64,000 bases of DNA from a virus, in IMG/VR virus record IMGVR_UViG_3300005533_000009, positions 1-64,000 of that record; one strand, 5' to 3'. Below the pieces are notes generated by a model, which saw only the letters and a list, made by a program, of their open reading frames with translations, had not been told where the DNA came from and did no database searches. This document shows, one piece after another, positions 17,861-55,139 of the stretch (positions are counted from its first letter, which is position 1; every line of letters starts with the position of its first letter). Position numbers and translations under genes: made by a program.

Positions 17861-17944
17861 ATCAAAAGCCTAATTAACTTTTGATTGTTACACGGTGGGG
17901 AGTGCCGACACACTCCTCACTAACTTTTGTCGGAAAGAAAAATG
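17861..17944 (+). promoter_or_regulatory. Kissing-loop SD-sequestering element 1
   Basis: GTGGGGAGTG-CCGACA-CACTCCTCAC; CTTT-TGTCGG-AAAG; the two loops are complementary. Confidence 0.7.
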
Positions 17945-18451
17945 AATAAATTTTATTGTTATTTTTGGCTACGTGAAGATGGTACCCCTTATTATGTGGG
18001 AAAGGGCACAAGACATCGAGCATACACAAAGTATTTTCATTGCTCTGATGTACCTAAAGACAAATCTAGAATTATAATACAATATTATAATTCGGAAGAA
18101 GAGGCTTTAGAAGCAGAGGTATTCTTTATAGAATACTTTGGAAGATTAGATTTAAATACGGGTATATTACGAAATTTGACCAATGGAGGTGATAACCCTC
18201 CACGCTATAAAGGCAAGAATAAAAAAGCGCAATGTCATCCCGATAGAAAACATAAAGCCTTAGGATTATGCCAACTCTGCTATAAAGACAAGTGGAGAAG
18301 AACAGCAGGAATACCTAAGAGAGAATTAAAAACACACTGCATTCATGGTCATCCTTTAGATGATCAAAATACATACATATTAAATGGCGTAAGACGTTGT
18401 AAAAGATGTATGCATAGATACTATATCAACCGTAAGATGCGTGAGCAATAG
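17942..18451 (+). CDS. GIY-YIG homing endonuclease
   Basis: FYCYFWLREDGTPYYVGKG, LRNLTNGG; C-terminal THCIHGH..RRCKRC. Confidence 0.85.
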   Translation: MNKFYCYFWLREDGTPYYVGKGTRHRAYTKYFHCSDVPKDKSRIIIQYYNSEEEALEAEVFFIEYFGRLDLNTGILRNLTNGGDNPPRYKGKNKKAQCHPDRKHKALGLCQLCYKDKWRRTAGIPKRELKTHCIHGHPLDDQNTYILNGVRRCKRCMHRYYINRKMREQ

Positions 18452-18464
18452 GACTCAGAAAAAG

Positions 18465-18932
18465 ATGGGTAGACCAAAAGGTTTGAGAAAAAACAAAGAA
18501 ACAGGCGAATGGTATATGAAAAATACCACTAAGAAGAAAGCCAAAAATAAAAAGGTTGAAAAATCAAACCTTTTGGACTCATTTTCAGAAAAGCTTATAG
18601 ATAGACTAGAAACAGACCTCGTAATGCTGCGCCAAGATTATGAAAGACGCTTGCAAGATAAGGACGTAGTTATAGCCAATCTAAGAGAAGAAAAGCAACA
18701 GCTAATATCTAAAGTTGCTCTCTATGAATTAACCATTTTACCCCGCGCATCCGTACAGGGTGCCGAGGTGGTAGCGTATCAGAAGCCTACAAAGCCTACC
18801 TTTTCAGCTAAAGATTTTCTATCCAATCCTCCTATCATGACTAGATGGCAGCAATTGAATCAACAGCATGAAGAGCAGATGAAAGCAGAAGATGAAGCGG
18901 AAAAGGCTGCTAAACAAGATTCTCAAGGATAA
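18465..18932 (+). CDS. Hypothetical protein
   Basis: ORF in the head operon; start uncertain. Confidence 0.65.
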   Translation: MGRPKGLRKNKETGEWYMKNTTKKKAKNKKVEKSNLLDSFSEKLIDRLETDLVMLRQDYERRLQDKDVVIANLREEKQQLISKVALYELTILPRASVQGAEVVAYQKPTKPTFSAKDFLSNPPIMTRWQQLNQQHEEQMKAEDEAEKAAKQDSQG

Positions 18933-18935
18933 ATT

Positions 18936-19409
18936 ATGGCATTTCAAACAGCAGACAAGCAGAAAACATTTGGTTCACGTTTTCGTCAGAAAAAGTATGA
19001 TCAGCACCACCCAGCCGAAGAAGAAGGTTCAATGAAGAAAATGGCTCCTGACCATGAAAAGCAGGAGTCTCCAGAATTTGAAGCGGGTGAACAAGAAGGT
19101 CAAGTTGAAGGTTCCGATGAGATGAATCAAAATGAGGCACCTCAGTCAGTAGTAGGAGCCCATGGTAAAGCAACCAGCGTTCATGTAGCCCATGATCACG
19201 GTGCAAACCAACATCACGTAACCTCAACTCATGCCGATGGTCACGTACATAAGAGTTCACATGCATCATCTAAGGATGCTCATCAAGCCGCAGGTATGCT
19301 AGGTGGAGCAGAAGAAAACCCTGCTGAGCAAAATCCAGAAGACGCTATGCTAGGCGGCGAACCAGAAGGCCCAGAGTCTGATGGTTTTAGAATGCCTAGA
19401 TTGGCTTAA
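18936..19409 (+). CDS. Hypothetical His/acidic-rich protein
   Basis: ORF with SD AAGGA. Confidence 0.7.
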   Translation: MAFQTADKQKTFGSRFRQKKYDQHHPAEEEGSMKKMAPDHEKQESPEFEAGEQEGQVEGSDEMNQNEAPQSVVGAHGKATSVHVAHDHGANQHHVTSTHADGHVHKSSHASSKDAHQAAGMLGGAEENPAEQNPEDAMLGGEPEGPESDGFRMPRLA

Positions 19410-19576
19410 TGCCATTTGCATCGAAGGCGCAGCAAAGATATCTCCACGCTCATCCTGAAAAGGTAGGTGGAGAGTCTGCTCTTAAAGAATGGGATAGTGC
19501 CACCGATTTTTCCCATCTTCCAGAGAGAAAAGATAAAAAGTTTAGCTACGCCAAGAAAAAGAAAAAGGAAGAATAG
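19409..19576 (+). CDS. Small basic protein MPFASKAQQRYLHAHP..., 55 aa, not in the ORF track
   Basis: TAATG coupling with the upstream gene; fills the gap exactly. Confidence 0.7.
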   Translation: MPFASKAQQRYLHAHPEKVGGESALKEWDSATDFSHLPERKDKKFSYAKKKKKEE

Positions 19577-19783
19577 ATGGCTACTGGACTTGGACATAAG
19601 TGGGCACAAAAAGCAACAAAGAAGATGAAAGAAAAGGGAACGGAAGGTTCTCTTACTCGTGCTGCACATTCAGCAGGGTACGATTCTCCTTTAGAGTATG
19701 CTCACCATATTAAGTCTCATAAAGACGAATATTCCGGTAAGATGCGTAAAAAGGCGAATTTCGCCGCGAACATTAACGCTTAA
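19577..19783 (+). CDS. Small basic protein
   Basis: ORF with SD AAGGAAG. Confidence 0.7.
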   Translation: MATGLGHKWAQKATKKMKEKGTEGSLTRAAHSAGYDSPLEYAHHIKSHKDEYSGKMRKKANFAANINA

Positions 19784-19788
19784 AGTTT

Positions 19789-19862
19789 GCTGTCAGCCTA
19801 ATTAACTGATGGCGGGGAGTGCTTACACACTCCCCAAACTCTATGTAAGGAGAGTTGTAATG
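19789..19862 (+). promoter_or_regulatory. Kissing-loop SD-sequestering element 2
   Basis: GGGGAGTG-CTTACA-CACTCCCC; AACTCT-ATGTAAGG-AGAGTT. Confidence 0.75.
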
Positions 19863-20312
19863 GTTGTAGTAAAATGTAAGGGATGTGGTGTAAACATATA
19901 CACATATCCCAGTGTAAACAGAGTTTATTGTAGTCGTGAATGTAAATCCCTAAATATTAATTGGGGAGGTGGTAGACCCATTGACCCAACGGCCAAAATT
20001 CACGATCCTAACTATCATACTTTTAGGCATTGGAAATTATCTTATAAATTATCTGAGGAAGATATTCTTAGAAAAATCCAAGAACAAAACGGCGTGTGTC
20101 CTATATGTAAACTTCCATTGGTTTTATTTTTGGATGGCAAAGTACAGATTTATATAGACCATGATCATTCTTGTTGCCCTAAAAGTAAAACTTGTGGAAA
20201 ATGTGTTAGAGGCATAATACACATAGGATGCAATATAGGTTTAGGAGCTTTTAAAGACAATGCTACTATATGTAGAAACGCCGCAAAATACTTGGAAAAT
20301 TTTAATAAATAA
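19860..20312 (+). CDS. Endonuclease VII-like HNH endonuclease
   Basis: QNGVCPIC, IDHDHSCC..CGKCVRGIIH..CN.GLG.FKD. Confidence 0.85.
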   Translation: MVVVKCKGCGVNIYTYPSVNRVYCSRECKSLNINWGGGRPIDPTAKIHDPNYHTFRHWKLSYKLSEEDILRKIQEQNGVCPICKLPLVLFLDGKVQIYIDHDHSCCPKSKTCGKCVRGIIHIGCNIGLGAFKDNATICRNAAKYLENFNK

Positions 20313-20326
20313 TTTAAGGAAGGTAC

Positions 20327-22972: not shown

Positions 22973-22977
22973 AATAT

Positions 22978-23060
22978 TTCAAAGGGTTGCTCCTTTGAAC
23001 AGGGAAGAGGGTTGCCTAGAACAATCCTCTTTCCGACTTTTCTAGGAAGTTATATAAATG
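22978..23060 (+). promoter_or_regulatory. Kissing-loop SD-sequestering element 3
   Basis: GGAAGAGGGTTG-CCTAGAA-CAATCCTCTTTCC; GACTT-TTCTAGG-AAGTT. Confidence 0.75.
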
Positions 23061-23579
23061 GATAAAAGAATAAAAGCAAAGAGTTTAGTAGGAAAAATAT
23101 TTGGTAAACTAACGGTTGTATCTAGAGCACCAAATACTCCTAAAAGTCCACAGTGGAATTGTGTATGTACCTGTGGAAATAAAGTAGTTGTACCAACACA
23201 AAGATTGATAAAAGGTACGTCTAAGAGTTGTGGATGTTTGAGAGAAGTAGATAATGCAGCTTTTACATTACTCTTTCGTACTTATAAGTTAAATGCAAGA
23301 AAGAAAGACTTAGAATTTAAATTAACAGAAGAGCAATTTAGAAATATTACAAGCTCTAATTGTTATTATACAGGAAGAAAGCCCACAAAAACTCTAACAA
23401 CAGTTAGTGGAGATATTTACAAATATAATGGTATAGATCGTCTAGATAACACACAGGGATATGTTTTACATAATTGTGTCCCATGTTGTACAGAGATTAA
23501 CTATGCCAAACGCACTCTTCCTTTCAAGCAATTTATTGCTTTATGTGCAGAAGTTACAAAACAGCACAAGCAATTATAA
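23058..23579 (+). CDS. HNH homing endonuclease
   Basis: GKIFGKLTV..WNCVCTCG, SCGC, NGIDRLDNTQGY..NCVPCC..IN. Confidence 0.85.
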   Translation: MDKRIKAKSLVGKIFGKLTVVSRAPNTPKSPQWNCVCTCGNKVVVPTQRLIKGTSKSCGCLREVDNAAFTLLFRTYKLNARKKDLEFKLTEEQFRNITSSNCYYTGRKPTKTLTTVSGDIYKYNGIDRLDNTQGYVLHNCVPCCTEINYAKRTLPFKQFIALCAEVTKQHKQL

Positions 23580-23601
23580 AGACTCAAGGAGATTCCTTTA
23601 A

Positions 23602-25059: not shown

Positions 25060-25064
25060 GATAT

Positions 25065-25147
25065 TTTCACTCTTAGCGGGGTGAAATTAAGTAATAGGGG
25101 GTTAGCCTCGAACTAGCCCCCTATGAAACTCTTTCGAGGAGAGTATG
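25065..25147 (+). promoter_or_regulatory. Kissing-loop SD-sequestering element 4
   Basis: ATAGGGGGTTAG-CCTCGAA-CTAGCCCCCTAT; ACTCT-TTCGAGG-AGAGT-ATG. Confidence 0.8.
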
Positions 25148-25651
25148 CCTTACAAAGACTCAAATAAAAATAGAGAATGTAGATTAGCTTGGCAGAAAAG
25201 AAATAGGACAAAGGTAAACGCTTATAAAAGAAAGCGTAGAGCCGAAAATTCTGAAGTTAGAGCCAAGGAATCAAGTTATACAATAGAATACCAACGTAAA
25301 AAGTATAAAGAGAATTCAGAGTTTAGACTTAAAGAGTCTTTTAGACACCATAAAAAGCGTCAAGATGAAAAGGTAGAAGCTCTAGTTCAATATGGTAAAA
25401 ATAAAAGCTTGCAGTGTTGCTGGGAAAACTGCAATGTAGACGATCCAGACATGCTGTCATTGGATCACGTCAATAATGATGGAGCAATAGATAGAGAAAT
25501 CAGAGGTACTGGAATTAATCTTTACAGAACACTAAAGAAAGAAGGTTATCCAGAAGGATTTCAAACTTTATGCTTCAATCACCAGATGAAGAAAGAAATG
25601 ACGCGACTCAGAAACAAATACAAAGATAGCATTAAGGAGAGAATTTTATGA
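25145..25651 (+). CDS. HNH-like endonuclease, paralog of 55137-55583
   Basis: LSLDHVNNDG...GYPEGFQTLCFNH. Confidence 0.8.
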   Translation: MPYKDSNKNRECRLAWQKRNRTKVNAYKRKRRAENSEVRAKESSYTIEYQRKKYKENSEFRLKESFRHHKKRQDEKVEALVQYGKNKSLQCCWENCNVDDPDMLSLDHVNNDGAIDREIRGTGINLYRTLKKEGYPEGFQTLCFNHQMKKEMTRLRNKYKDSIKERIL

Positions 25652-25845
25652 GTGATCCAGTAACAAATCGTGCAGGAAAGCCAGTTACCACTGGTGATCA
25701 AGTCACAGTAGTAGGAACCGTTGCTTCAGTACCAGGTAGCGGTCCCACTGGTTCTGTTGTAGTAACTCTTGCCACCACCGGAACTAACGTAACGGTTGAG
25801 GGACAAGATGTGTACAACACAACTAACAGCTTAGCTAACGGATAA
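25648..25845 (+). CDS. Small beta-rich protein, single-unit paralog of 63507-63863
   Basis: GKPVTTGDQVTVVGTV matches GKVVAVNDQVSVMGKV. Confidence 0.65.
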   Translation: MSDPVTNRAGKPVTTGDQVTVVGTVASVPGSGPTGSVVVTLATTGTNVTVEGQDVYNTTNSLANG

Positions 25846-26522: not shown

Positions 26523-26523
26523 A

Positions 26524-26844: not shown

Positions 26845-26876
26845 AAAGTTTTATGGAGCTACTAAGTGTGGCTCCT

Positions 26877-27132: not shown

Positions 27133-29467
27133 ATGGCTGCATTACTAGAAGCGGCTGTGGAAGCTGTCGAACTTGATGCGTTTGCAAAAGAGATTCCCGA
27201 CCTAGTTTTCCATGGCACTACTGCTTACACTCTTTTCAAGAATGAAGCAACTAAGATTCCTGTAAGCAACCAGTCTAACGCAGGCGGCGTTCAGCGTCCA
27301 TCATTCCGTGTTCCTTTCCGTGTACAAAGCGGTGCGGCAATTTCGCAGGGAACTGGTAACGCTGATTCAATGCTGCGTGGTTCTGGTTCACAGTGGGCAT
27401 CATTTGCGCTTGCCCCTGTATATTTGTTCAACGTGTGTGAAATCTCATGGTTGGCACAGGCATCAACTGACAGCAAGCAAAAGGGCTTGTTCGCTGTTAA
27501 TACTTTAGCAGCGGCTGCGTAGTAATACATGGCGTAGAAATAATCTTGCTATATCGGGGAAAACCTGTTATCCTAAAGATGGAAATAGACAATCCCGAGG
27601 GAAGATAGAATGACAAAGCAAAGTAAGTTTTCATACCTTGCAGGTTTCATGGATGGCGAAGGAACATTCGCTATCGTCAAAACCTTCTCGGTTCAAAGAA
27701 AACCGGATGGAAGTAAGAAGCGTTACGTGGTATATAAACTGAATATCTCAGTAAGTAATACCAACAAAGAAGTCATGGAATGGATAGCCTTGAATTTTGG
27801 AGGCAAGCCACTGCCGGGAAGCAATGAAGGTCGAAAGCCTCATTATAAAACTCGGTATGCATGGCACGTAACACACAGAGACAAACAAAAGAGTTTTATT
27901 CTTGGTTTGTTACCTTACCTAGTTGCGAAAAAGGAACAAGCAAAAATAGCACTACAATTCATTGAGACTTATTCGAATGAGATTGGGGTGCCGCTTGATT
28001 CTGCGGTGGTAGAGAAAAGAGACCAGTTGAGAAAGCAAATGCAAAAACTCAACGGTACACTACCTTCCGATTCTAAACCCGTAGAGACTACACGCAGGAC
28101 TCCAAAGTGTACAAAATGTAATCATCTAGTTTCAGAGCATACTTCCACAGGATGTAATGTAAAAGTATGTGATGCTGCTGGAGATTTAGATTTTTGTCCT
28201 TGTGGATGATGATATAGTCCGAACTGCATAGTGATATGCAGAGTGTGGCAGAAATGTCATACCTAGCTTTTAGCTAGTAACATATTTGTAAAGCACAAGA
28301 AATGAAGAATTCGCTAGACGCTGCTATGCAGGGTATTGAAGGTCTGATTAACTCAGACGGTTCTGGTGCAATTGACCAGATTCCTTCAACCGCAACTATC
28401 ACTCTAAGTGGTGGTTCACCCGCAGCACAGACTGCTAGCATTGTTGGTATGAACGTGGCAGTTGCATTTTCAGATCAGCAAGTAGTTAAGTTCTACAGCA
28501 CTGGTGGCGTACAGCGTACTGGTGGTGGTATCACTTCCGCAACGATTTCCTACGTTGACGGACCTAGCAACACTCTATATTTCAGCACTGCTCTGCCTTC
28601 AGACGTAGTGGTAACTGACTATGTAGTTGTTCAGGGTGCAACTTATGGAGCAGGTAACTCAATCCTTGGTATCAAGGCATGGGACGTTAACTCAAACACT
28701 GGTACTATTGCAGGTTTGAACCGTAACGCTTATCCCGGTCGTCTAAGCACTCCAACTATTAACCTAGCTGGTGCTGCATTGACTCCAAACATTGCCCAGA
28801 GAGCAGAAGTGCTCCTAGGTCGTGCATTGGGTCCAGACGCTGATAGCATCGAAAGTGGTATCTGGTACGGTCCTCCTGAGCAGGCAATGGCTCAGAGCAA
28901 TTTGTACTACAACGTACAAATCATCAATGCTCAAGAAGTAAAGGGCGACAAGACACTCGATATGTCTAAGAAGCACTTTGCTAATGAGTTTGGTGGCCGT
29001 AAGTATCACAAGAGTTGGACATTCTCACCAAACCGTATGGATTTGCTGGTAATGGACAACTGGTACATGGGCGAACTTTCACCTCTTGAGCTTTATGACT
29101 TCGGGGGCGGGAATGTAGTTGCTCCAGTGCCTGATATCGGTAACAGTACCTCAAGCGGGTCATACCTTACCTCACACATGTTGAACGTTACGTTAGGACA
29201 TGTATAAATTTCTTCTGATTGACTCGAACCCTGAAATGGCAACGAGGCGGAACCCAATAGGGACCGTGAGAGACTAAGCGAAGAAACGTCTAAATGACGA
29301 TGCAATAGTCCGATCACATGGGAATAAAACCATGTGAGTGCAACAGAAATGATTGCACCTCATACACTGAGTAACAACAATGCGCGTATAATTGCTGCTT
29401 CAATTTGGCAAACGCTGCTCCAAGAGCAGGTCTGTATATCCAGAATGCAGCAGTTCCGACCATCTGA
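27133..29467 (+). CDS. Major capsid protein; exons 27133-27497, 28289-29182, 29383-29467 (447 aa spliced)
   Basis: Splicing at U.G and omega-G sites restores one frame (...KGLFAV|KAQEMK... and ...SHMF|AYNCCFNL...PTI*); position after portal and scaffold. Confidence 0.8.
27498..28288 (+). mobile_element. Group I intron 1 in the capsid gene, carrying a LAGLIDADG ORF
   Basis: P1 TCGCTGT|TAA..TTAGCAGCGG with U.G; P10 TAAAG/CTTTA; core AGAGACTAC and GATATAGTCC; terminal G. Confidence 0.9.
27610..28209 (+). CDS. Intron-encoded single-motif LAGLIDADG endonuclease with a Cys/His C-terminal tail
   Basis: YLAGFMDGEG, NFGG, LLPYLVAKKEQA. Confidence 0.9.
   Translation: MTKQSKFSYLAGFMDGEGTFAIVKTFSVQRKPDGSKKRYVVYKLNISVSNTNKEVMEWIALNFGGKPLPGSNEGRKPHYKTRYAWHVTHRDKQKSFILGLLPYLVAKKEQAKIALQFIETYSNEIGVPLDSAVVEKRDQLRKQMQKLNGTLPSDSKPVETTRRTPKCTKCNHLVSEHTSTGCNVKVCDAAGDLDFCPCG
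29183..29382 (+). mobile_element. Group I intron 2, ORF-less, 200 nt
   Basis: P1 ACATGTT|..GACATGT with U.G; AGAGACTAA and GCAATAGTCCGA core; terminal G restores frame. Confidence 0.88.
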
Positions 29468-29502
29468 TTTTAAATAACTTAGATGTGTTTTTGATTGTGA
29501 AA

Positions 29503-29580
29503 CTTTGAGCCTCATGAACTCAAAGCGTGGAGGGGATAGCCTAATCTATCCCCTTCTCACTCTATTAGGAGAGAAAATTG
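29503..29580 (+). promoter_or_regulatory. Kissing-loop SD-sequestering element 5
   Basis: GGAGGGGATAG-CCTAAT-CTATCCCCTTC; CTCT-ATTAGG-AGAG. Confidence 0.75.
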
Positions 29581-30096
29581 GTACAAAAAAGAAGAAGTAC
29601 AAAACCTTATGAAGGCTACCCTTGGCATGAACAACATAAGGAAGAATTAAAAGAAAAAGCTCGTAAATATAGAGCGGAAAACCCAGAATACTTAAAGCGC
29701 AATGCTGAAAAAGCAAGACGTGATCGTTTAGAAAACCCAGAATTTTATCGTGCCAGAGAGTTTGCACGAGAAATGAAAAAATATGGTGTAACTGTAGAAT
29801 GGTACAGAGATAAACTTATTGCTCAAAATGGACTTTGTGCTATTTGTCAGCATTTAAGTCATCATCATGGTACTATTCAAAGATTACAGGTAGATCATAA
29901 TCATCAGTGTTGTGATGTTAAAACCAAAAGTTGTGGAGAATGCGTGCGCGGTCTTTTATGCGCCGATTGTAATATTAATCTTAGCTATTTGGAAAAAATT
30001 TTGAAAGACATATACGGTCTGTATGAAGCCCGATGGGACTCATGGACCTCTAAGGCATTAAAATATTTGACTCAGTACGAACTTACTGCCAACTAA
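29578..30096 (+). CDS. Endonuclease VII-like HNH endonuclease
   Basis: QNGLCAIC, LQVDHNHQCC..CGECVRGLLCADCN. Confidence 0.85.
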   Translation: MVQKRRSTKPYEGYPWHEQHKEELKEKARKYRAENPEYLKRNAEKARRDRLENPEFYRAREFAREMKKYGVTVEWYRDKLIAQNGLCAICQHLSHHHGTIQRLQVDHNHQCCDVKTKSCGECVRGLLCADCNINLSYLEKILKDIYGLYEARWDSWTSKALKYLTQYELTAN

Positions 30097-30171
30097 CCAC
30101 GGTAAAAAGTGTGGCAGGAACCCTCTAATTCTGGCTATTTCACCGTGAATTTTAGCCAGTTAGAGGAACAA

Positions 30172-36706: not shown

Positions 36707-37395
36707 TGACACACAAAATTTTAATAGCAATAGTTACTTGTAACGGTAGAGAAGATTGGGTAGAAGTAATTAGAAATACATGGATGCCCTTGGTAAAAGG
36801 AGCCGATGTACGGTTCTTTAAAGGTACAGAAGATTTGCACACTACAGAAGATAACTTTAGTGTGCAACTTAACTGTAGAGACGATTATCAAGGGCTTCCA
36901 AATAAAGTTCAAGAAATTGTCAAATGGGCATTAAATCATGAATATGATTATATGCTTAAGTGTGACGATGACGTGGTTATAAACCCTTGTAAGATACTTC
37001 GCTCGGGGTTCGAACAATACGATTTTGTTGGACACGAATGTGCGCCTAATAATCAGACCCCATGGGGATTCAATTATTGGCTGTCAAAAAAGGCTATGAA
37101 AATAGTGGCCGATGATATTCTCCCCAGCGATAATAACGATGAAGCTTGGGTATCCAGAGCGATGAATCGTAATGGTATACTACTAAAACACGATGACCGC
37201 TACATGCTGCATTACGGCAGAAACTTAGGAATAATGCCAGAGCGTAGATCGCTCAGAAAGCCTGTAGAAATGCCTAAGTATGAATCAGAAATATTTTCTT
37301 GGTGTATGCATAATCACAATGTAGACAGAAAGATACTGATTCAAGAGTTTATTAGGGTGTATGAACGAGAGGTTAAGACTCAGTGCCAAAGATAA
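36706..37395 (+). CDS. Fringe/GT31-like glycosyltransferase
   Basis: IRNTW, DDYQGLPNKV, YDYMLKCDDD (DxD), GFNYWLS. Confidence 0.75.
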   Translation: MTHKILIAIVTCNGREDWVEVIRNTWMPLVKGADVRFFKGTEDLHTTEDNFSVQLNCRDDYQGLPNKVQEIVKWALNHEYDYMLKCDDDVVINPCKILRSGFEQYDFVGHECAPNNQTPWGFNYWLSKKAMKIVADDILPSDNNDEAWVSRAMNRNGILLKHDDRYMLHYGRNLGIMPERRSLRKPVEMPKYESEIFSWCMHNHNVDRKILIQEFIRVYEREVKTQCQR

Positions 37396-44708: not shown

Positions 44709-44716
44709 CGACTCAG

Positions 44717-46039
44717 ATGTATGATGCTCAGAGAATCAATTTAATAAACTCCTTATCGGAAGACCTTTCGCCTTACGTTCCGTTTACCAAAGAATTTATA
44801 CCGGGACAAACCCAAGTATTGTACTCTGGGCCTTATTGGAATCAAAAAGAATTCCAGATGGCTATGCAAGCCCTGTTGATGGGTAAATGGATAACCTCTG
44901 GAGAATATGTAGCTCGATTCCAAAACGTATTTGCTCAGTATTTTGGAGTTAAATACGCTCACATGGTTAATTCAGGAAGTTCTGCTAACCTCGTAATGAT
45001 TGCAGCCCTGAAGAAGCATTTCAACTGGCAAGATGGAGATGAGGTCATTGTTTCTCCGGTAGGGTTCCCTACAACGATTGCTCCTTTGATGCAGCATGGG
45101 CTGAAGCCTGTATTTGCTGATATCGAGTTAAACACTCTCAACTTCAACTTAGATCAAGTAGAAGCCAAGATAACACCCAAAACAAAAGCCATTATAGTCT
45201 CCCCTGTATTGGGTAATCCGCCCGATATGGATAGACTAAAGAGTATGGCAGAATACCATGGCATAAAGCTAATTGGAGATAATTGTGACAGTATCGGAAC
45301 CAGATGGAATACACAGCATATTAACAAATACTATTTTTGCTGGTCATCATCTTTCTATCCCGCCCACCACATATCAACTGGAGAAGGTGGAATGGTCTGC
45401 TGTGACGATAAAAGGTTCATTGATGAAGTCAGAAGTATTTCATGGTGGGGACGTGATTGCTACTGCGTGGGTGCCGCTAACCTGTTATCCTGTGGAACCT
45501 GCGGAAAACGATTTGATAAATGGCTAGAGAATGAAGACGCTGTTATCGACCATAAGTACGTATTTACCAACGTTGGTTATAATTTAAAGCCTCTGGATTT
45601 GCAGGGGGCCATCGGTCTAGCTCAGATGGAAAAAATGCCAGATATTGAGCGTAGACGTAGAGAGTATAAGACTAAGATTTCACAATTTTTTGCTGCTGAT
45701 TTACCTGTTTCTACTTATGTTCGCATGGTAGAGACGTTACCACAAGCCGATCCTTGCTGGTTTGGTGTGCCTATATATTGCCACGAACAAGTAAGAAAAG
45801 AACGCTTTGTTGCTTTCCTAGAGGAAAACAAGATTCAGACCAGAAGTTATTTTGCTGGAAACATCTTAAAGCATCCGGCGTATAAACATCTAGACGACGC
45901 TGCTAAATATCCCAATGCGAATTTGGCGCTTACCAACGTGCTATTCATTGGGTGTGCTCCCCACTATACTCCAGAAATCATCAAGTATATCGGAGAGAAA
46001 GTTAAGATGTGGGCAGAGTTGGAGGCTAAACGTGGATGA
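44717..46039 (+). CDS. rfbH: RfbH/DdhC-type NDP-4-keto-6-deoxyhexose 3-dehydrase (DegT family)
   Basis: VNSGSSANL, FYPAHHISTGEGG (His in place of the Schiff-base Lys), WGRDCYC..CGTCGKRF Fe-S motif, DHKY. Confidence 0.85.
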   Translation: MYDAQRINLINSLSEDLSPYVPFTKEFIPGQTQVLYSGPYWNQKEFQMAMQALLMGKWITSGEYVARFQNVFAQYFGVKYAHMVNSGSSANLVMIAALKKHFNWQDGDEVIVSPVGFPTTIAPLMQHGLKPVFADIELNTLNFNLDQVEAKITPKTKAIIVSPVLGNPPDMDRLKSMAEYHGIKLIGDNCDSIGTRWNTQHINKYYFCWSSSFYPAHHISTGEGGMVCCDDKRFIDEVRSISWWGRDCYCVGAANLLSCGTCGKRFDKWLENEDAVIDHKYVFTNVGYNLKPLDLQGAIGLAQMEKMPDIERRRREYKTKISQFFAADLPVSTYVRMVETLPQADPCWFGVPIYCHEQVRKERFVAFLEENKIQTRSYFAGNILKHPAYKHLDDAAKYPNANLALTNVLFIGCAPHYTPEIIKYIGEKVKMWAELEAKRG

Positions 46040-46896
46040 CAAATCTAACAGTACTTGGTGGAAGAGGGTTTGTAGGTAGTACATATGTAAAAAAGTACTA
46101 TGATCAAGCCGTTGGAAACATAGTAAGTATAAACGAACGAAATGATTTGAACGTGTACAGCAAGGACGTGTTGTATTTCATTAGCACTGTTCATAACTAC
46201 AACGTTTTTGATAATCCAACATTAGACATAGAAACAAACCTTATAATACTTGTAAAAGTGCTGGAGAACTGGAGAAAGCACCCAGATTCAAAAGATGGTG
46301 TGTTTAACTTTATAAGTTCATGGTTTGTATATGGTAAGCAAGAACATCCCCATGGAGTGAAAGAGGACGCAATTTGCGACCCCAAAGGTTTTTACTCTAT
46401 AACCAAGCGTTGTGCTGAACAACTCCTAATATCTTACTGCTCTACTCACAATCTTAAGTACAGAATATTGAGATTAGGTAATGTGATTGGTGAGGGAGAC
46501 AAAAAAGTTTCGGCTAGAAAGAACGCTCTTCAATACATGGTTAATCATATATTAGAAGGTAAGCCTGTCGAAGTGTATGGAGACGGTCACTTTCATCGAG
46601 ACTTTATACACGTAGAAGACTGCGTAACCGCGATAGATTTAGTGATAAATAAAGGGAATGTAAACAGTATTTATAACATAGGAAATGGCAAGATGTGGGA
46701 TTTTATTACCATACTTTCCTACGTTAAAATCATGTCAAATTCTGGCAGTAAGATAGAGCACGTAGAACCAAAAGAATTTCATAAGGCTGTACAGATACCA
46801 AGCTTTTACATGGATGTGTCTAAGCTAAAAGCACTAGGTTTTGAACCAAAGTACAAGTATGCCAAACTGTACGCCACTTTACTCAGAGAGGATTAG
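46036..46896 (+). CDS. NAD-dependent sugar epimerase/dehydratase
   Basis: GGRGFVG, YSITK (YxxxK), RDFIHVED. Confidence 0.85.
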   Translation: MTNLTVLGGRGFVGSTYVKKYYDQAVGNIVSINERNDLNVYSKDVLYFISTVHNYNVFDNPTLDIETNLIILVKVLENWRKHPDSKDGVFNFISSWFVYGKQEHPHGVKEDAICDPKGFYSITKRCAEQLLISYCSTHNLKYRILRLGNVIGEGDKKVSARKNALQYMVNHILEGKPVEVYGDGHFHRDFIHVEDCVTAIDLVINKGNVNSIYNIGNGKMWDFITILSYVKIMSNSGSKIEHVEPKEFHKAVQIPSFYMDVSKLKALGFEPKYKYAKLYATLLRED

Positions 46897-46898
46897 CG

Positions 46899-47636
46899 TT
46901 GCGTACTTTGATAGCAGTAGTGTCTGCTCGTCATCGCAGTGAATGGAGAAAAGCTATAAGAGAAACTTGGTTGCCATTAGTACCGATAACCAAGGCTGAA
47001 GTTAAGTTCTTTGTAGGCTCTGGGGATTCTCCCATAGAACCTGATGTTGTAGAACTTGATTGTGATGATTCTTACCAAGGGCTTCCAGAGAAGATACGGG
47101 AGATAACCCGATGGGCGCTTAAGAATCAGTTTGACTATATGCTCAAATGTGATGATGACGTTATATTAAGGCCGGAAGGCATTCTTTACAGTGGTTACGA
47201 AAACCACCTTTACTCAGGCAAGACTAACAGATATCCCACCACAGAACAGCCCTTTCCTGTAACCGTGGGATTCAACTATTGGCTACACAAAGATGCCATG
47301 AAGTTAGTGTCTGAGCATGAATTACCTCCCGAGTTAGGGCCGGGAGTGAAAGACAACGATGATGAGAAGTGGGTAGCAGGAATAATGCACGACCATGGCA
47401 TTAAGCTACATCACGACCATCGTTATGAGATTTATGGTGGGGAATTACCTGAAAAGGAACCCACTATATTGTACCGTCCTTTACGTCCACCGAAAGTCAA
47501 TTCTGAACAAAATCGGGAAGCGTTTAGCTGGACAATTTTTTTGGAAGCAAACAGCGGTAATGGAATACCTTTAGATATAAAGATAAAAGAATTCTACAAG
47601 GTGTTTAATAAACTTTATAATAATCCCCAAGCTTAG
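46899..47636 (+). CDS. Fringe/GT31-like glycosyltransferase, paralog of 36706
   Basis: IRETW, DDSYQGLPEK, FDYMLKCDDD, GFNYWL. Confidence 0.75.
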   Translation: MRTLIAVVSARHRSEWRKAIRETWLPLVPITKAEVKFFVGSGDSPIEPDVVELDCDDSYQGLPEKIREITRWALKNQFDYMLKCDDDVILRPEGILYSGYENHLYSGKTNRYPTTEQPFPVTVGFNYWLHKDAMKLVSEHELPPELGPGVKDNDDEKWVAGIMHDHGIKLHHDHRYEIYGGELPEKEPTILYRPLRPPKVNSEQNREAFSWTIFLEANSGNGIPLDIKIKEFYKVFNKLYNNPQA

Positions 47637-47704
47637 CGGCTTGGTGTTAGGGAGAGGTAGTGCTGACACATTATCTCTCCCGCCTTTGTCAGAAGGAACA
47701 TATG
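47627..47704 (+). promoter_or_regulatory. Kissing-loop SD-sequestering element 6
   Basis: GGGAGAGGTAGTG-CTGACA-CATTATCTCTCCC; CCTT-TGTCAG-AAGG. Confidence 0.8.
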
Positions 47705-48178
47705 AATCAAAATTACAATAAAACCCATTGTATTAGAAAGCATGAATTTACTGAAGAGAATACTTACGTATTTCCCAACGGTAAGCGTGCATGTAAAACT
47801 TGTAGGTTACTGTGGTATAAAAAGCACAGAGACGGTAACAAGGAAAAGCGTGCTATAAGCAAAAAGAAATGGGATAATAACAATAAAACCCACACAAGAG
47901 AGTATCAACGAACAATAGAAAGAAAAAGAGTAGGTTGGACTAAAGAACTGTGGGATAGCACATTAAAAGAACAGAAAAGACGATGTGCTATTTGTAAACA
48001 ATATCTAGAGTTGGAAGGTAAGGGTAAGAGAAGCGCAACAGCGGATCATATCCATGTCAATCCTCCGATTCCTAGAGGTATTTTGTGTAGCCATTGTAAT
48101 ATGGGGTTGGGACTGTTTAAAGACAATCCCGCCATTTTAATAGAGGCAGCAAAATACGTCGAAAGACACAAACCGTAA
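47702..48178 (+). CDS. Endonuclease VII-like HNH endonuclease with an N-terminal THCIRKH domain
   Basis: CAIC, ADHIH..PRGILCSHCNMGLGLFKD. Confidence 0.85.
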   Translation: MNQNYNKTHCIRKHEFTEENTYVFPNGKRACKTCRLLWYKKHRDGNKEKRAISKKKWDNNNKTHTREYQRTIERKRVGWTKELWDSTLKEQKRRCAICKQYLELEGKGKRSATADHIHVNPPIPRGILCSHCNMGLGLFKDNPAILIEAAKYVERHKP

Positions 48179-48227
48179 TTTAATTTACAGTATCCGGGGC
48201 AACATCTAGCCGGGGAAAGGAAAAACA

Positions 48228-48626
48228 ATGGCTTCAAATTTACCTTCAGTTACGTTTGCTGATTTATTTCCAACAGGCGTATCCATGGACTCTAAGACCA
48301 TTACCATGTGGCAACAGCTACAAATTGGTGCTGGAGTTTATGCAGTAGGTGGAATTCCTGCTGGAGTACAGAATTTGGCTGGACTTAAGACAATTGATTT
48401 CAGCACCTTCCTACAATCAACTGTAGTTAGCGAACTGACTGTACCTGCAACTGGAAGTACATATATTTATCGTTATGTACCTTCCACTGATAAATTGCAG
48501 ATTTTCCAGCAAACACTGTCAAATGGATCACAAACAGCATTTACGGAACTAACCGCATCTGCCGTGATTCCATCCGGTGTTCTGAACGACACAATAGTCG
48601 GTGAGTTTATCTTCAACAGATTGTAA
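48228..48626 (+). CDS. Hypothetical virion protein
   Basis: SD AAGGA; beta-rich; tail module. Confidence 0.6.
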   Translation: MASNLPSVTFADLFPTGVSMDSKTITMWQQLQIGAGVYAVGGIPAGVQNLAGLKTIDFSTFLQSTVVSELTVPATGSTYIYRYVPSTDKLQIFQQTLSNGSQTAFTELTASAVIPSGVLNDTIVGEFIFNRL

Positions 48627-48643
48627 GTTATAGAAAACAAAGA

Positions 48644-48723
48644 ACTTAGGAGTAATTACCCTGAGTAGAGTTGGGCGGTACTCATAATGCCGCCCTTCTC
48701 GCCTTTATGAGAGGAATTTTATG
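48644..48723 (+). promoter_or_regulatory. Kissing-loop SD-sequestering element 7
   Basis: GGGCGGTA-CTCATAA-TGCCGCCC; CCT-TTATGAG-AGG. Confidence 0.75.
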
Positions 48724-49206
48724 GGAAGAACAAGACAAACACATTGCAAGAGAGGGCATGAATTTACGGAAGAGAATACTTATGTAGCTCCTCCTAATAA
48801 ACAGCATCCCTATGGATTAAAGCAATGTAGAATATGTCGTACATTAAGAAATCAGAAACGAAGAGAAGACCCTGTTGAGCGTGCTAAGATTAATGCTCGT
48901 AGCATTCAGTGGGCTTTAGATAATCCTGAAATAGTAAGAAAGCGCAGTAGAGAACATACGTGGAAAGAATCAGGTTGGTTACCTGAGATGATTGAAGACA
49001 AGTTAAAAGAGCAAGATAATAAATGCGCTATCTGTCTTAAGAAGTTTACTGAAGAAGATGGTCCTCATGCCGACCATGCTCATACTACACCTCCTAAACC
49101 AAGAGGTTTATTATGTGGAAAATGCAATAGAGGTATAGGCATGTTTAACGACAACCCTTTGCTTTTGCAATGGGCATCTCAATACATCTTGAAATACTCA
49201 AGCTAG
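48721..49206 (+). CDS. Endonuclease VII-like HNH endonuclease with an N-terminal THCKRGH domain
   Basis: CAIC, ADHAH..PRGLLCGKCNRGIGMFND. Confidence 0.85.
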   Translation: MGRTRQTHCKRGHEFTEENTYVAPPNKQHPYGLKQCRICRTLRNQKRREDPVERAKINARSIQWALDNPEIVRKRSREHTWKESGWLPEMIEDKLKEQDNKCAICLKKFTEEDGPHADHAHTTPPKPRGLLCGKCNRGIGMFNDNPLLLQWASQYILKYSS

Positions 49207-49257
49207 AAGGTTTCGTCACCGAAGTCGTGACCTTCTTTATAAATATAGGAGGTTACT

Positions 49258-52200: not shown

Positions 52201-54333
52201 TTTATAACTGATACCGGATATAACACCGCTCCTAATGTACCAGTAACTTTTGACGTAGCTTCGGGAAGTAACTCGATTGTAGTTAGCAATCTTCCTATAG
52301 GACCGCCTAACGTAATTGCCAGAGGTATCGCCATTACAGAGGCAGGGCAAAACGGTGTTCCGGGTGCTAATTTTTATGTAATTGAAAACGATGTAACTTC
52401 TACGATTGGTAATTCGGTGGTTACATTGGCAACATCCACAATTGTACGAGACAACACTACTCAAAGCGCAACCTTCTCATTCACTGATGCTGTTCTTCTT
52501 GAATCGAGAGAGATTGACATACAGGGTGACAACTTATTCAACTTGATTGAACTGGGAAGTTCAGCATGGTGTGTACCATATAAGAGCAGAATGTTCTACG
52601 GTATGCAATTGAATAAAGTACAGGGGTTCACAGCTATGGCATTTGATAGCTACGTAACTCCCGGTCAACCTGCTGGTTGGAGTTCTCCCGGCATTGGTGG
52701 AACCCTAGTAACAAGTACTGTTACAGGTTTTGCTTATTCTATTAGTAACACTACAGGATCAACCATAGCTACGGCTGGATTAATTCAGCAGGGGGCTTAT
52801 CAAGACTATTACGGAGTGCCGATTATAGAGCAGAATACTCTGTATTCAGTGCGAGTAGCGGCTAGAGCACCATCAGGAAGTGCGATTGGGACTCTAGTTA
52901 TAGACTTGTTTGATGGCTCAACGGTGTATGGTTCGTTCACTGTACCATTTTCACAAATGTCAACAATTACGCAGGTATTCTCTGGTAGCTTGTTGACCAA
53001 TCCATTTACTAGTGCGGTTAACCAAGGGGGTGCTCAAAGCACTTCTGGGTCTGTGCCAACAACCCTTGTTCTAAGAGTATATGCACAGAATCTGGGTAAC
53101 GGAGCAAACGTAGAAATAGATAGAGTGGAAGTTTATCCGACCGAAACTCCATTTATTGAAGCTCAGGTTTATGGTTCTTATATTAACCTGCCCGAGTCTA
53201 TAGACGCAAGTTCTAACGGAGGTATCATTGATACTTCGACCGAAAACAAGCAGCCTGTAACTGGGGCGTTTGTTATGCATGATCTGTTGTTCTTACTCAA
53301 GACTAAGAGCATGTATTCAGTGGAAGACAATGTAAACTCTGAACCCGGAGGTTGGGGATTAAAAGAAGTAAGTAATAGAGTGGGTTCTATTGGAATTCAC
53401 GCTTATGATGTTGGTGAAGAGTGGGCGGTTATGGCTTGCCGAGAAGGTATCTTCGGATTCAATGGTGGACAACCACAAAAGATGATGCAAGAAATCTGGC
53501 AAGTTTGGGAAGCTATTAATTGGGATGCTGGACATACTATCGTGTTAAGAAATGATATTATTAACAAGCGTATTCTATGTGCTATCCCTCTACCTACCGG
53601 AACCAACCCAACTACAGGTGTTAAAACTAAGTCAGTAGCTTGGTTACCTAATGCTACATATAATCCTACACCAACCACACCAAACGTTATGCTGTGCTTA
53701 AACTATCAAGGTCTAGGCACATTCGAAGAGTTGGTAAGTGGAGCAGAAATGCACACTACCATGTTTGGTACGCTGGCTGCTGTAGATATGCGTAGAAAAT
53801 GGACAATTTGGCAAATTCCATCACCTTATATGGACTTTGTAACAAGAAAGAATGGAATCGACGCACCGTTGTTTATTTGCAATGGTATTGATTCTTCTAA
53901 GGTTTATGAGCTAAGTACAGATCAACTCAGTGACGATGGAGTTGCAATCAATAGCTCATACACAACATACGGGTTCGTTAATGCTGAAAAAGCAGCTACA
54001 GTACCTATATTTGGATATCATACAAAGAGATACACTATTTTGCAGATTCTGGCTAGTGGAGCAGGAACGGCTCAATTGCGTATTCTTCCAAATACGTTGG
54101 ATGCTCGTTATCCATACACTGTACCTGTTGGTATCACACTAACTAGCCCAGAGCAAGATGATTTCTTTAGACCTATTAACGTAAAAGGAAACCGTGTATT
54201 CGTAGAGACATCTACTAATGCGGTCGGCGCTTGGTTTAGCCAAAGCAAAATAATGTTAACTGGTAAAGCAGATCATTGGTCAAGTCTCAACCCTACGGGT
54301 GGTGGGAACATTGGCATTACATCGTCTTCATAA
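49258..54333 (+). CDS. Large tail protein (nozzle/tubular B-like) with multiple inserted Ser/Thr-rich beta domains
   Basis: 1691 aa; N-terminal GM...SP.CQDVDF..GS..TRPG and propeller-like C-terminus typical of podoviral nozzle proteins; inference. Confidence 0.6.
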   Translation: MGHNLQQLGTAALDMMGGMITLAKPEDLPEGASPRCQDVDFDIGSVHTRPGLLSVYTYATTFNITSVVITYGTATVTYTNSAGTQPVVNEQLLLQGFTGALIFLNGQTVVVESVTATSFTFAITSQDVSLTVVSGATAISLTGQFAGPNVPTLATDISGGSAPWVSPNSILGNTSYASSATGSTVTAPGVPGAAANVDSVRPWTSPSNVFSTSLFATVSLSAGQTSTAILANGVGYAIPSNASVKGISLAFKASTTGVAGSGSINIQLAQNGSPIGTAINVPISNTPNTYTQGSSAYQWGTNLTPDIVNGTAFGILLDAQQGTGSGAFSVNSLTVTVYYTTASSSDALQAQQFVFVIPSTSGISGFGVSFQAYSTTNTSVTVQMLKGGLPVGTAKTQVLTTVPTIYSLGASNDLWGNTWLFSDVNSNQFGIQITASGTGTTFINDVDMLVYITPALVNFNWIKTYEQDDGDINTLALDASGIIWIEDVINNEGALSVALTGILPNSYAKSSTMFDREYICFSNEFIGSDRPRVFDGTSFLPLSMYAPGGQLSVQASSSGTTSNLNLTSYAVTGGVATFQYTGTEPVAGTVYVLTNIIPSAAGSTTDTLINNKPFIILSSGLSPTQFEISVPSHANLGSTPLVSTATAVLAQNFSISSIIQSYRFVSPPPPPTNAGSGSYGTPGTAEGPNPKGKWQQLLQSAGPGSSQPGSVVTVYYANASVGGVGIPGDDNLVEQFNQGIPTYVYITGTGTYNGTWQVTSVGIGIPPGGAGERYFFTFNFTSSTHFVTNSTTGMTYQRSLAVVNTTTGIADLQAGSQVTITGETPAGWNATWTVVQPLNSGSLNITNAAVSGDGSTITFQYNVATGVAPKASEIVKVTNVLVNSGTELNGTYVIQTSTNTSPGSFTVIAPAGATAGESVTQTNAQAVVYGTQFLIDPGSTTVGTTTNPIYGSGTTGTLNVIGATPSGGTQISAGTRQAVCFFITDTGYNTAPNVPVTFDVASGSNSIVVSNLPIGPPNVIARGIAITEAGQNGVPGANFYVIENDVTSTIGNSVVTLATSTIVRDNTTQSATFSFTDAVLLESREIDIQGDNLFNLIELGSSAWCVPYKSRMFYGMQLNKVQGFTAMAFDSYVTPGQPAGWSSPGIGGTLVTSTVTGFAYSISNTTGSTIATAGLIQQGAYQDYYGVPIIEQNTLYSVRVAARAPSGSAIGTLVIDLFDGSTVYGSFTVPFSQMSTITQVFSGSLLTNPFTSAVNQGGAQSTSGSVPTTLVLRVYAQNLGNGANVEIDRVEVYPTETPFIEAQVYGSYINLPESIDASSNGGIIDTSTENKQPVTGAFVMHDLLFLLKTKSMYSVEDNVNSEPGGWGLKEVSNRVGSIGIHAYDVGEEWAVMACREGIFGFNGGQPQKMMQEIWQVWEAINWDAGHTIVLRNDIINKRILCAIPLPTGTNPTTGVKTKSVAWLPNATYNPTPTTPNVMLCLNYQGLGTFEELVSGAEMHTTMFGTLAAVDMRRKWTIWQIPSPYMDFVTRKNGIDAPLFICNGIDSSKVYELSTDQLSDDGVAINSSYTTYGFVNAEKAATVPIFGYHTKRYTILQILASGAGTAQLRILPNTLDARYPYTVPVGITLTSPEQDDFFRPINVKGNRVFVETSTNAVGAWFSQSKIMLTGKADHWSSLNPTGGGNIGITSSS

Positions 54334-54339
54334 ACCCCA

Positions 54340-54375
54340 AAGGAAGGGAGCCTAAAAAGCTCCCTTTCTATTTTA
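54340..54375 (+). terminator. Hairpin terminator with a CCTAAAAA loop
   Basis: GGAAGGGAG-CCTAAAAAG-CTCCCTTTC-TATTTT. Confidence 0.6.
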
Positions 54376-54384
54376 GGAGAGTAT

Positions 54385-55023
54385 ATGGCTCAGCAGCACA
54401 CAAATTTTGAAGCAGGTTCAGAACTTACATACCTATCTCAAAAAGACGCTTATTTAGGAAAGTTCTTGCGTAGATTAGTAGACGCTATGAATACATCGGC
54501 TCAAAATGCGGGAGTTTCGGCTGTTGGTAAGTTTCCTACCCCTCCTCCAGTAGATACAATAGATGTACAAGGAACTTTCAGTTCCAACTCGAACACAATT
54601 ACAACACCTTCAGAAATACTGCACTGGACGTTGACTCATAATCAGCAGATTCACAAGGGTATAAAATATTTTACTGAAGTAGATACTGATCCAAGTTTCA
54701 GTAACCCTCATGTTATAGATCATGGGACTTCAAGATCAGGATTTTTAACACTGCCTACCATGGATAATGATGGTGCAACACAGAATTATTACATGAGAAG
54801 TTATGCACAATATCCCGGCAGTGATCCTTCAGAAAAGACAATTTTAGGTGGTACTAACAATCCTACTGCCATCGTTATGACAGGTACAAGCAAAACTTCC
54901 CTGTTAACTTCTAAGGGCAGCGGTACTGCAAAAGCAGATGGTCAGCAAGGTGGTCAAGGTTTAGGTAAAGTTCTTACTCGTCCTGCAACGGGGCCGAAAA
55001 GATCGGTGGTACAGCATTCATGA
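54385..55023 (+). CDS. Hypothetical virion protein
   Basis: SD AGGAG; follows the nozzle gene. Confidence 0.65.
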   Translation: MAQQHTNFEAGSELTYLSQKDAYLGKFLRRLVDAMNTSAQNAGVSAVGKFPTPPPVDTIDVQGTFSSNSNTITTPSEILHWTLTHNQQIHKGIKYFTEVDTDPSFSNPHVIDHGTSRSGFLTLPTMDNDGATQNYYMRSYAQYPGSDPSEKTILGGTNNPTAIVMTGTSKTSLLTSKGSGTAKADGQQGGQGLGKVLTRPATGPKRSVVQHS

Positions 55024-55055
55024 GTGCGTTAGTGCGAGACTATAACCACAAATAT

Positions 55056-55139
55056 TCTAAGGCTTAGCGGCTTTAGATTAGAGGGGGAGGAATGCCATCT
55101 ACATTCCTCTTTCTCGCCTTTAGATGGAAGGAAAATATG
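55056..55139 (+). promoter_or_regulatory. Kissing-loop SD-sequestering element 8
   Basis: GAGGGGGAGGAATG-CCATCTA-CATTCCTCTTTCTC; CCTT-TAGATGG-AAGG. Confidence 0.8.

Follow-up and report, generated by a model that had tools for sequence, protein, structure and literature searches.

Introduction

Homing endonuclease genes rank with the most common selfish genes of phages, and to our knowledge it is understood for only a few T-even cases how they stay harmless inside essential operons. The homing endonucleases of T-even phages are regulated by structures that sequester the ribosome-binding site (RBS) (PMC2988022). In the RNAs of I-TevI, I-TevII, I-TevIII, segB, and Aeh1 mobE, a stable structure just upstream of the gene occupies the Shine-Dalgarno (SD) sequence by pairing and restricts its translation from long polycistronic transcripts (PMC2988022); each of these structures is a simple hairpin specific to its gene and harbors a late promoter, which lets late transcripts escape. 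Here we describe an RNA leader upstream of eight nuclease genes in an uncultured phage, i.e., IMG/VR record IMGVR_UViG_3300005533_000009, a single contig of 81,268 base pairs (bp) of which the first 64 kb (positions 1 to 64,000) are referred to below as the window. Each leader is ~80 nucleotides (nt) long, lies 5' of the nuclease start, and comprises three hairpins, i.e., P0, P1 (with loop L1), and P2 (with loop L2); the complementary sequences of L1 and L2 are termed the key. Unlike the T-even structures, the leader represents one conserved, modular family with at least 103 distinct copies, in which pairing between a loop and the RBS is combined with a second helix and a proposed insulator hairpin at the 5' end. 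It is best interpreted as an RBS-sequestering leader of phage homing-endonuclease genes, representing an RNA family absent from Rfam.

Results

Loops L1 and L2 covary across 103 distinct copies of the leader

The leader is a real RNA that covaries strongly. In all, 103 distinct copies were found, i.e., eight in the genome containing the window and 95 in related IMG/VR phage contigs, carrying between them at least 45 distinct keys. Pairing of L1 with L2 was perfect, with 6-7 Watson-Crick pairs, in 96 of the 103 copies; one had a G-U pair, and the other six were truncated or decayed. The searches used a covariance model (R1), built from 48 copies, that contained only P0, P1a, P1b, and P2 and was thus blind to L1:L2 covariation. 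Its secondary structure was assigned by hand; RNAalifold applied to a MAFFT alignment recovered only P1b, because loops of unequal length had been misaligned by MAFFT. On a first sample of 72 IMG/VR loci encoding terminase homologues (60-68% identity), together with the window, R1 gave 91 matches, 64 of them distinct. L1:L2 pairing was perfect over 6-7 nt in 61 of these and contained a single G-U in another, while two lacked the entire 3' half. When loops were compared with the downstream stretch of another copy, the longest match was mostly 3-4 nt, and it reached at least 6 nt in only 73 of 3,914 comparisons.

A second sample, of loci picked solely by a 14-base P0 pattern, yielded 38 new distinct R1 matches, 34 of them with perfect L1:L2 pairing and the others either cut by the end of a contig or decayed. 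The loci of the third sample were selected by protein, using an alignment of homologues of the GIY-YIG-like nuclease; loop-to-RBS pairing was present in 12 of their 71 distinct upstream regions, compared with 2.6% of control ATGs. The latter figure, i.e., the proportion of control ATGs in related loci that have the complement of a hairpin loop beside the start, excludes chance as the source of loop pairing in the leader. A search for related loci that started from a single EndoVII nuclease gave no match, and the EndoVII alignment was too variable to serve as a query.

In 16 copies that could be aligned without gaps, the loop-loop helix was 100% paired, with six of its seven pairs varying on both sides and no G-U pairs, values that were reached in none of 500 shuffles. 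Sliding the partner by 1-3 columns reduced pairing to ~50%. Covariation was also evident in P0, P1a, P1b, and P2; a P2 of 3 bp or more was present in 78 of 89 copies, compared with 36% for mismatched partners. The many G-U pairs of P0 and P1 indicate that the fold forms on the sense-strand RNA, and near-invariant bases are limited to a G-C closing pair, CC/GG, and the SD.

Within the window (Table 1), minimum free energy structures obtained with RNAfold contained the P0, P1, and P2 hairpins in all eight leaders, with z-scores of -3.0 to -4.0 relative to dinucleotide shuffles. P1 is a G+C-rich stem of 8-14 bp (-13 to -20 kcal/mol), P2 consists of 3-5 bp flanking L2, and the L1:L2 duplexes have nearest-neighbor energies of -4.0 to -9.0 kcal/mol. 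R1 found these eight leaders and nothing more in the window, with its filters off, and likewise over the whole 81,268-bp genome. A first-pass annotation, made from the sequence alone, had listed the eight gene starts and the eight L1/L2 pairs, all of which proved exact, and had described the P0/P1/P2 architecture that RNAfold and R1 recover. It had read the differing keys as covariation within one genome, a claim that the wider family strongly upholds, and had noted that the nuclease genes starting at 37383, 40231, and 43268, which overlap the upstream open reading frame (ORF), lack the leader; R1 with filters off found none there. Its remark that all eight keys differ holds in the window but not as a rule, since keys repeat within one relative genome (L022 carries CTCCAA twice and CCTATCA twice).

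Only one R1 match was obtained for the P0 14-mer in 572 kb of unrelated bacterial DNA, showing that R1 is specific. Matches to the 14-mer in bacterial and archaeal genomes were nearly all due to chance, with one genuine leader among them. The latter is at positions 27-106 of a 1,259-bp contig (L184) binned as uncultured Terracidiphilus (Acidobacteriota), and is the only such leader found in the bacterial/archaeal genome collection; it provides a weak hint to the host, or is a binning artefact.

Table 1. Leaders, keys, and associated genes in the window (R1 scores in bits)
Feature	Position	Strand	Hairpins or gene product	Key (L1 / L2)	R1 score
Leader 1	17861-17941	+	P0 17861-17885 (loop CCUAAUUAA); P1 17894-17921, 11 bp; P2 CUUU/AAAG around L2	CCGACA 17905-17910 / TGTCGG 17928-17933	38.9
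Nuclease gene 1	17942-18451	+	GIY-YIG-like N-terminus (FYCYFWL..PYYVGKG) and zinc-finger tail; phrog_314 "homing endonuclease", phrog_15526; aligns with MFYTYLWLR family
Leader 2	19784-19859	+	P0 19789-19813 (loop CCUAAUUAA); P1 19814-19835, 8 bp; P2 ACUCU/AGAGU	CTTACA 19822-19827 / TGTAAG 19844-19849	20.3 (lowest of eight)
Nuclease gene 2	19860-20312	+	Endonuclease VII-type (HNH-like); PF02945, E 7.7e-13
Leader 3	22977-23057	+	P0 22978-22999 (UUGC loop); P1 23002-23034, 13 bp; P2 ACUU/AAGU	CCTAGAA 23015-23021 / TTCTAGG 23040-23046	54.9
Nuclease gene 3	23058-23579	+	HNH / EndoVII-like; phrog_374, phrog_1035
Leader 4	25064-25144	+	P0 25065-25086 (CUUAGCGG type); P1 25094-25124, 12 bp; P2 ACUCU/AGAGU	CCTCGAA 25106-25112 / TTCGAGG 25133-25139	36.1
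Nuclease gene 4	25145-25651	+	No Pfam/PHROG match; HNH-like motif SLDHVNNDG...QTLCFNHQ; BLAST-linked to other leader-associated nucleases
Leader 5	29502-29577	+	P0 29503-29525 (loop with UCAUGA); P1 29529-29556, 11 bp; P2 CUCU/AGAG	CCTAAT 29540-29545 / ATTAGG 29564-29569	31.9
Nuclease gene 5	29578-30096	+	TTG start; Endonuclease VII-type; PF02945, E 3.5e-11
Leader 6	47624-47701	+	P0 47627-47644 (CUUAGCGG type); P1 47650-47681, 13 bp; P2 CCUU/AAGG	CTGACA 47663-47668 / TGTCAG 47687-47692	55.3
Nuclease gene 6	47702-48178	+	Endonuclease VII-type; PF02945, E 8.3e-14
Leader 7	48643-48720	+	P0 48644-48666 (loop with GUAAUUAC); P1 48673-48695, 8 bp plus outer GAG/CUC; P2 CCU/AGG	CTCATAA 48681-48687 / TTATGAG 48705-48711	47.6
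Nuclease gene 7	48721-49206	+	Endonuclease VII-type; PF02945, E 1.3e-14
Remnant ORF	55020-55067	+	15 codons, MSALVRDYNHKYSKA, opening at ATG 55020 and stopping at a TAG in the P0 loop of leader 8
Leader 8	55055-55136	+	P0 55056-55077 (CUUAGCGG type); P1 55081-55115, 14 bp; P2 CCUU/AAGG	CCATCTA 55095-55101 / TAGATGG 55121-55127	59.7
Nuclease gene 8	55137-55583	+	No family match; HNH-like motif SIDHINDDG...QTLCMNHQ

The Shine-Dalgarno sequence is predicted to be shared between two helices

The best SD 5-mer, which was GGAGG in 51 of the 76 copies that were parsed, shared 1-5 nt with L2, at the 3' end of the latter, in all 76, and in 54 it started 2 nt before the end of L2. P2 contributes the remainder of the SD through its 3' strand. 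L1 and L2 are spaced almost uniformly, with 17-19 nt from the last base of the former to the first of the latter, and keys of the CTCCAA/TTGGAG class have an anti-SD sequence as L1. As in the RBS-sequestering hairpins of the T-even type, the SD is base-paired within a stable local structure, overlapping L2 and the 3' strand of P2 in all 76 parsed copies, and both helices covary. These results support a model in which the SD would be buried in two covarying helices, and agree with the first-pass proposal that the SD is part of the locked structure.

The leader is the 5' end of a mobile nuclease cassette

The junction between the terminase gene and the next gene is empty in more than 40 relatives, which have only 21-93 nt there and in which the stop codon often runs into the SD of the following gene (TAGGAGGACTCAGATG). 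In nine others it is occupied by 546-771 nt, with a leader starting 2-10 nt past the stop. Because the occupied junctions open with the leader right past the stop, it is with the leader RNA that the mobile cassette begins on its 5' side; generally, 0-12 nt separate the leader from the stop codon upstream. The presence/absence polymorphism at a conserved junction, together with ORFs matching Pfam and PHROG nuclease families, marks these insertions as free-standing homing-endonuclease cassettes, and supports the conclusion that the leader belongs to the cassette and travels with the nuclease as a unit, as the first-pass annotation had thought possible.

Two relatives, L015 and L017, are 100% identical to a third, L016, on both flanks, minus 490 bp extending from inside L1 to around codon 150 of the nuclease (L015:2584-2759 and L017:3476-3651, compared with the intact L016:4445-5110). 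This deletion is a decay scar, in which P0 and the 5' strand of P1 have been retained. At L035:7501-7570 and 7913-7981 (and also in L067 and L069) leader copies have kept P0 and P1, with no L2, P2, or nuclease ORF, and in the two decayed L035 copies the palindrome of the P0 loop is broken (CTAAGTA).

In the window, cassette 8 has split the 5' end of a gene, leaving the 15-codon remnant listed in Table 1. The (V/I)RDY motif of the remnant recurs past nuclease gene 8, where the homologous part of the downstream ORF starts (...TIIRDYVHETDF...); the latter ORF (region 55529-55620) overlaps the 3' end of nuclease gene 8 by 55 nt. The genes behind each cassette look essential and are on the same strand.

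Every intact copy of the leader sits 5' of an ORF of the homing-endonuclease type, so that the association with nuclease genes extends to the homologs. Among 56 distinct downstream proteins, all of the family matches were to nuclease types, i.e., Endonuclease_7 (23), the GIY-YIG-like "homing endonuclease" phrog_314 (13), HNH (8), HNH_5 (7), and HNH_3 (4), where a single protein may match several families. These nucleases are linked to each other by shuffled modules. An identical key and P1 were found before different nuclease families, and a single nuclease family follows many keys, which supports the idea that the leader is modular across families and bears out the first-pass view that it is not tied to one of them. 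The families named in that annotation were borne out only in part: the genes starting at 19860, 29578, 47702, and 48721 match Pfam Endonuclease_7, the gene at 23058 matched HNH/EndoVII PHROGs, and that at 17942 matched a "homing endonuclease" PHROG and has a GIY-YIG-like N-terminus, but those at 25145 and 55137 match no family, their HNH-like motif (...DH.N.DG...QTLC.NHQ) being recognizable by eye only.

P0 loops are rich in stop codons, and promoters lie outside the core

The loops of P0 are either tetraloop-like (CUUAGCGG and GGUUGCUC) or 8-9 nt long with a 6-nt palindrome. The palindromes (TAATTA, TGATCA, TTATAA, TCATGA, and ATTAAT) differ between copies, and each contains a stop codon. In 44 of 62 leaders, two or more reading frames are closed within the first 34 nt, which comprise P0 and the linker to P1 (often GGGCTAG); the proportion among shuffles was 28%. 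Stop triplets cluster at two fixed places, being found in the P0 loop in 44 and in the P0-P1 linker in 51 of the 62. P0 and the linker would probably insulate the cassette from ribosomes arriving from upstream.

Copies without P0 have sigma70-like promoters (TTGACA-17/18-TAGAAT/TACAAT) upstream of the entire P1, and keep L1 and L2, so that the lock would be present even on the gene's own transcript. The existence of P0-less copies also indicates that the core is P1/L1/L2/P2 and that P0 goes with insertion behind an upstream ORF. No conserved promoter-like element was found inside the leader, although phage-specific promoter types outside the scope of the scan are possible, and promoter-like sites in 16-31 kb of the window showed no excess over shuffles. 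The embedded promoter that characterizes hairpins of the T-even type was therefore not seen in the leader.

Genomic setting

Megablast of 16-26 kb gave no match among GenBank phages. From ~16 kb onward the genes are on the + strand and tightly packed. This array is opened by the large terminase gene, whose product has a weak match to Pfam Terminase_6N and ~24% identity to the terminases of Arthrobacter phages; no close relative was found among GenBank phages. Most of the other genes of the array have no family match, and the placement of the cassettes in late operons by the first-pass annotation, while plausible, was not borne out. Genes for an aminotransferase (phrog_3139) and a nucleotide-sugar epimerase (phrog_540) are present at 44717-46896 in the same-strand array, adjoining cassette 6. 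There are 15 tRNA genes in two clusters, at 404-1183 (-) and 11736-14802 (+), and two nuclease-like ORFs among tRNA genes (11235-11753 and 12879-13220) are both without a leader.

A probable group I intron (region 27610-28241) lies between ORFs 27133-27522 and 28302-29207 and contains a leaderless HNH gene (27610-28209; phrog_5046). The candidate core, at 27986-28241, has a conserved AGACUA and GAUAUAGUC, and matched Rfam RF00028 with 37.3 bits (E 1.5e-7), under the gathering score of 50. The 7-nt loop of another hairpin, AGAGU-CCCGCUC-ACUCU at 7067-7103 (+), could pair without mismatch to GAGCGGG, 17 nt away. We rejected this hairpin as a member of the family, because its elements are in the wrong order, at the wrong distance, and off the SD, and it is ~110 nt upstream of a minus-strand gene; the latter (6982-6461) encodes an Endonuclease_7.

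Discussion

We think it probable that the leader, as the 5' end of a mobile nuclease cassette, acts in cis as a translational throttle, i.e., as a "double lock" on the SD. The sequences directly show the structure, its covariation, the part played by the SD, membership in the cassette, and specificity for nuclease genes; repression, insulation, and the exact three-dimensional arrangement are what we infer from them. A compact cassette, consisting of the leader and a free-standing homing-endonuclease gene of ~450-520 nt, would insert into a dense array of same-strand genes, either immediately after a gene or slightly within it. In the transcript, two short helices that covary would together pair the whole SD (usually GGAGG): the 3' end of L2, which supplies the first 1-5 nt of the SD, would pair with the loop of the strong P1 hairpin, and the 3' strand of P2 would hold the remainder. 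The double lock would most likely throttle the initiation of translation, and nuclease output would stay low, on abundant read-through transcripts or own-promoter transcripts alike. P0 and the stop-rich linker, situated 0-12 nt past the upstream stop, probably provide insulation from incoming ribosomes.

Several points weigh against such a throttle. The bases of P1 and P2 are joined by 0-3 nt, and there are 5-9 nt between the 3' end of P1 and L2; with linkers this short, full-length P1, P2, and loop pairing should not be able to coexist in one molecule. A coaxial P1-kiss-P2 complex would not be expected to close in cis, and the literal three-hairpin kissing complex of the first-pass annotation appears sterically implausible in that form. 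Fraying at the base of P1 would make room for an H-type pseudoknot (P1 plus L1:L2), although such a fold excludes P2. Since P2 and loop pairing both covary, a lock with a single state would be an incomplete description, and there may be either two alternating SD-masking states or pairing in trans as a reciprocal dimer. The loop duplexes of leaders 2 and 5 are also weak, with nearest-neighbor energies of -4.0 and -4.1 kcal/mol, and ~10 further nuclease-like genes in the same genome have no leader. Finally, the copies are related to each other, so that their numbers overstate the independent events, although each new key still needs two matched changes.

A lock that is opened conditionally, either by a trans factor (a phage protein, a helicase, a small RNA acting as a "master key", or temperature) or by ribosomes terminating at P0, would time the synthesis of the nuclease, going beyond mere throttling. 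Since the upstream stop is 0-12 nt before P0, terminating ribosomes must melt the 5' strand of P0; the pseudoknot and P2 are mutually exclusive SD-masking states that both covary, as they would in a switch; and the T-even systems are timed, via the late promoter (PMC2988022). However, masking the 5' strand of P0 in RNAfold did not consistently free the SD, with P1 and P2 persisting in most window copies, and we rejected ribosome sensing by P0 as the main model for this reason. In addition, an alternative pairing, GGG:CCU, occurs in some relatives without being conserved, the leader is without an internal promoter-like element (that of P0-less copies being upstream of P1, and such sites at 16-31 kb being no more frequent than in shuffles), and no candidate trans factor was found, so that a switch seems unlikely to us. 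A different way to satisfy P1, P2, and loop pairing together, given that a cis arrangement of the three helices seems sterically implausible, would be an antiparallel dimer of two leaders, with L1 of each pairing reciprocally with L2 of the other and self-complementary P0 loops helping; in this geometry, the base of P1 comes to lie next to that of P2 within each molecule. The copy-specific 6-nt palindromes of one class of P0 loop resemble retroviral dimerization loops, and it is a broken palindrome, CTAAGTA, that is found in the two decayed copies. The leader would then be a self-addressed mRNA docking module, in which a reciprocal two-helix dimer, nucleated by the palindromic P0 loops, hides both RBSs. 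The variable key would be each cassette's own address, and mobile DNA would carry a form of translational control, mRNA dimerization, for which we know of no phage precedent. Set against this are the commonest P0 loops (the CUUAGCGG and GGUUGCUC types), which are not self-complementary, the retention of L1 and L2 in P0-less copies, and the stop codon in every P0 palindrome, which gives an alternative reason for the palindromes; we consider a dimer improbable, and its elaboration into a docking module equally so.

Functions other than translational control account for less of the evidence. That the leader is a self-cleaving ribozyme, a nuclease entry site, or a 5'/3' stabilizer, separating the nuclease message from the operon transcript, is very unlikely: its topology recalls the pistol ribozyme, and P0, directly after the upstream stop, could shield a 3' end, but there was no Rfam match up to an E value of 5, pistol included, nor a P3 hairpin or conserved unpaired core, and the placement of the SD is accounted for by translation and not by cleavage. 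P1 might also be read as an intrinsic terminator or attenuator that halts read-through transcription before the nuclease gene, being a strong G+C-rich hairpin, and two of the eight window copies were flagged as terminator-like through a CUUUU tail. However, in most copies the tail of P1 is CGACCU or similar, without the U run of an intrinsic terminator, terminator-like sites showed no clear excess (16 versus 10.7 +/- 3.4 in shuffles), essential-looking genes on the same strand follow each cassette, and L1:L2 covariation would be left unexplained; we give this idea very little credence. Equally improbable is a signal at the DNA level, i.e., an inverted-repeat site for recombination, homing, or protein binding. 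The leader does mark the 5' border of a mobile cassette, and a common leader sequence could aid exchange of cassettes among sites, but at least 45 strictly complementary keys, with G-U pairs on one strand only, imply selection on RNA pairing.

If this widespread leader is a translational throttle of this kind, the fact that it accompanies nucleases from several unrelated families points to a portable "safety catch", which would let nuclease cassettes settle between tightly coupled genes. It allows such cassettes to be recognized cleanly when metagenomic phages are annotated, and nature supplies with it a library of orthogonal loop/RBS pairs, at least 45 in number, which are candidates for tunable translational locks. 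It also poses a well-defined structural question, i.e., pseudoknot, alternating states, or dimer.

With regard to novelty, which the first-pass annotation had put forward and which has held up, only tRNAs reached the gathering threshold in Rfam 15, nothing up to an E value of 5 overlapped any leader, and a full-text literature search found no description of this leader RNA. In the T4-like homologues of the GIY-YIG-like nuclease we found the classical design, i.e., a long-range stem of 10-12 bp that surrounds a small hairpin together with a TATAAATA box resembling a late promoter, located ~100 nt before position 1201 in L292, L316, L329, L349, and many others. The leader differs in having no internal promoter, promoters, if present, being upstream of the whole lock.

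As in SD-masking H-type pseudoknots (the preQ1-I, SAM-II, and SAM-V riboswitch platforms and the T4 gene 32 leader), a hairpin loop pairs with a downstream sequence that contains the SD, but the leader has no Rfam match and no conserved core resembling a ligand pocket, its at least 45 keys are free to vary, and it is found on mobile nuclease cassettes. In the pistol ribozyme, which is often phage-associated, all 6 nt of a hairpin loop are paired to a strand that a helix further downstream encloses. The leader gave no match to this family (RF02679) up to the same E value; it has no P3, i.e., no third hairpin between L2 and the 3' strand of P2, and no conserved linker or G-U cleavage site, and the strand that is enclosed is the RBS. 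Loops of 6-7 nt that are complementary over their full length are also a feature of ColE1 RNA I/RNA II, TAR-TAR*, and the HIV-1 DIS, and some P0 loops of the leader, with a 6-nt palindrome in 8-9 nt, are like the HIV-1 DIS itself. However, whereas those kissing loops are intermolecular, L1 and L2 of the leader are carried by one mRNA, 17-19 nt apart, and may pair either in cis or in trans.

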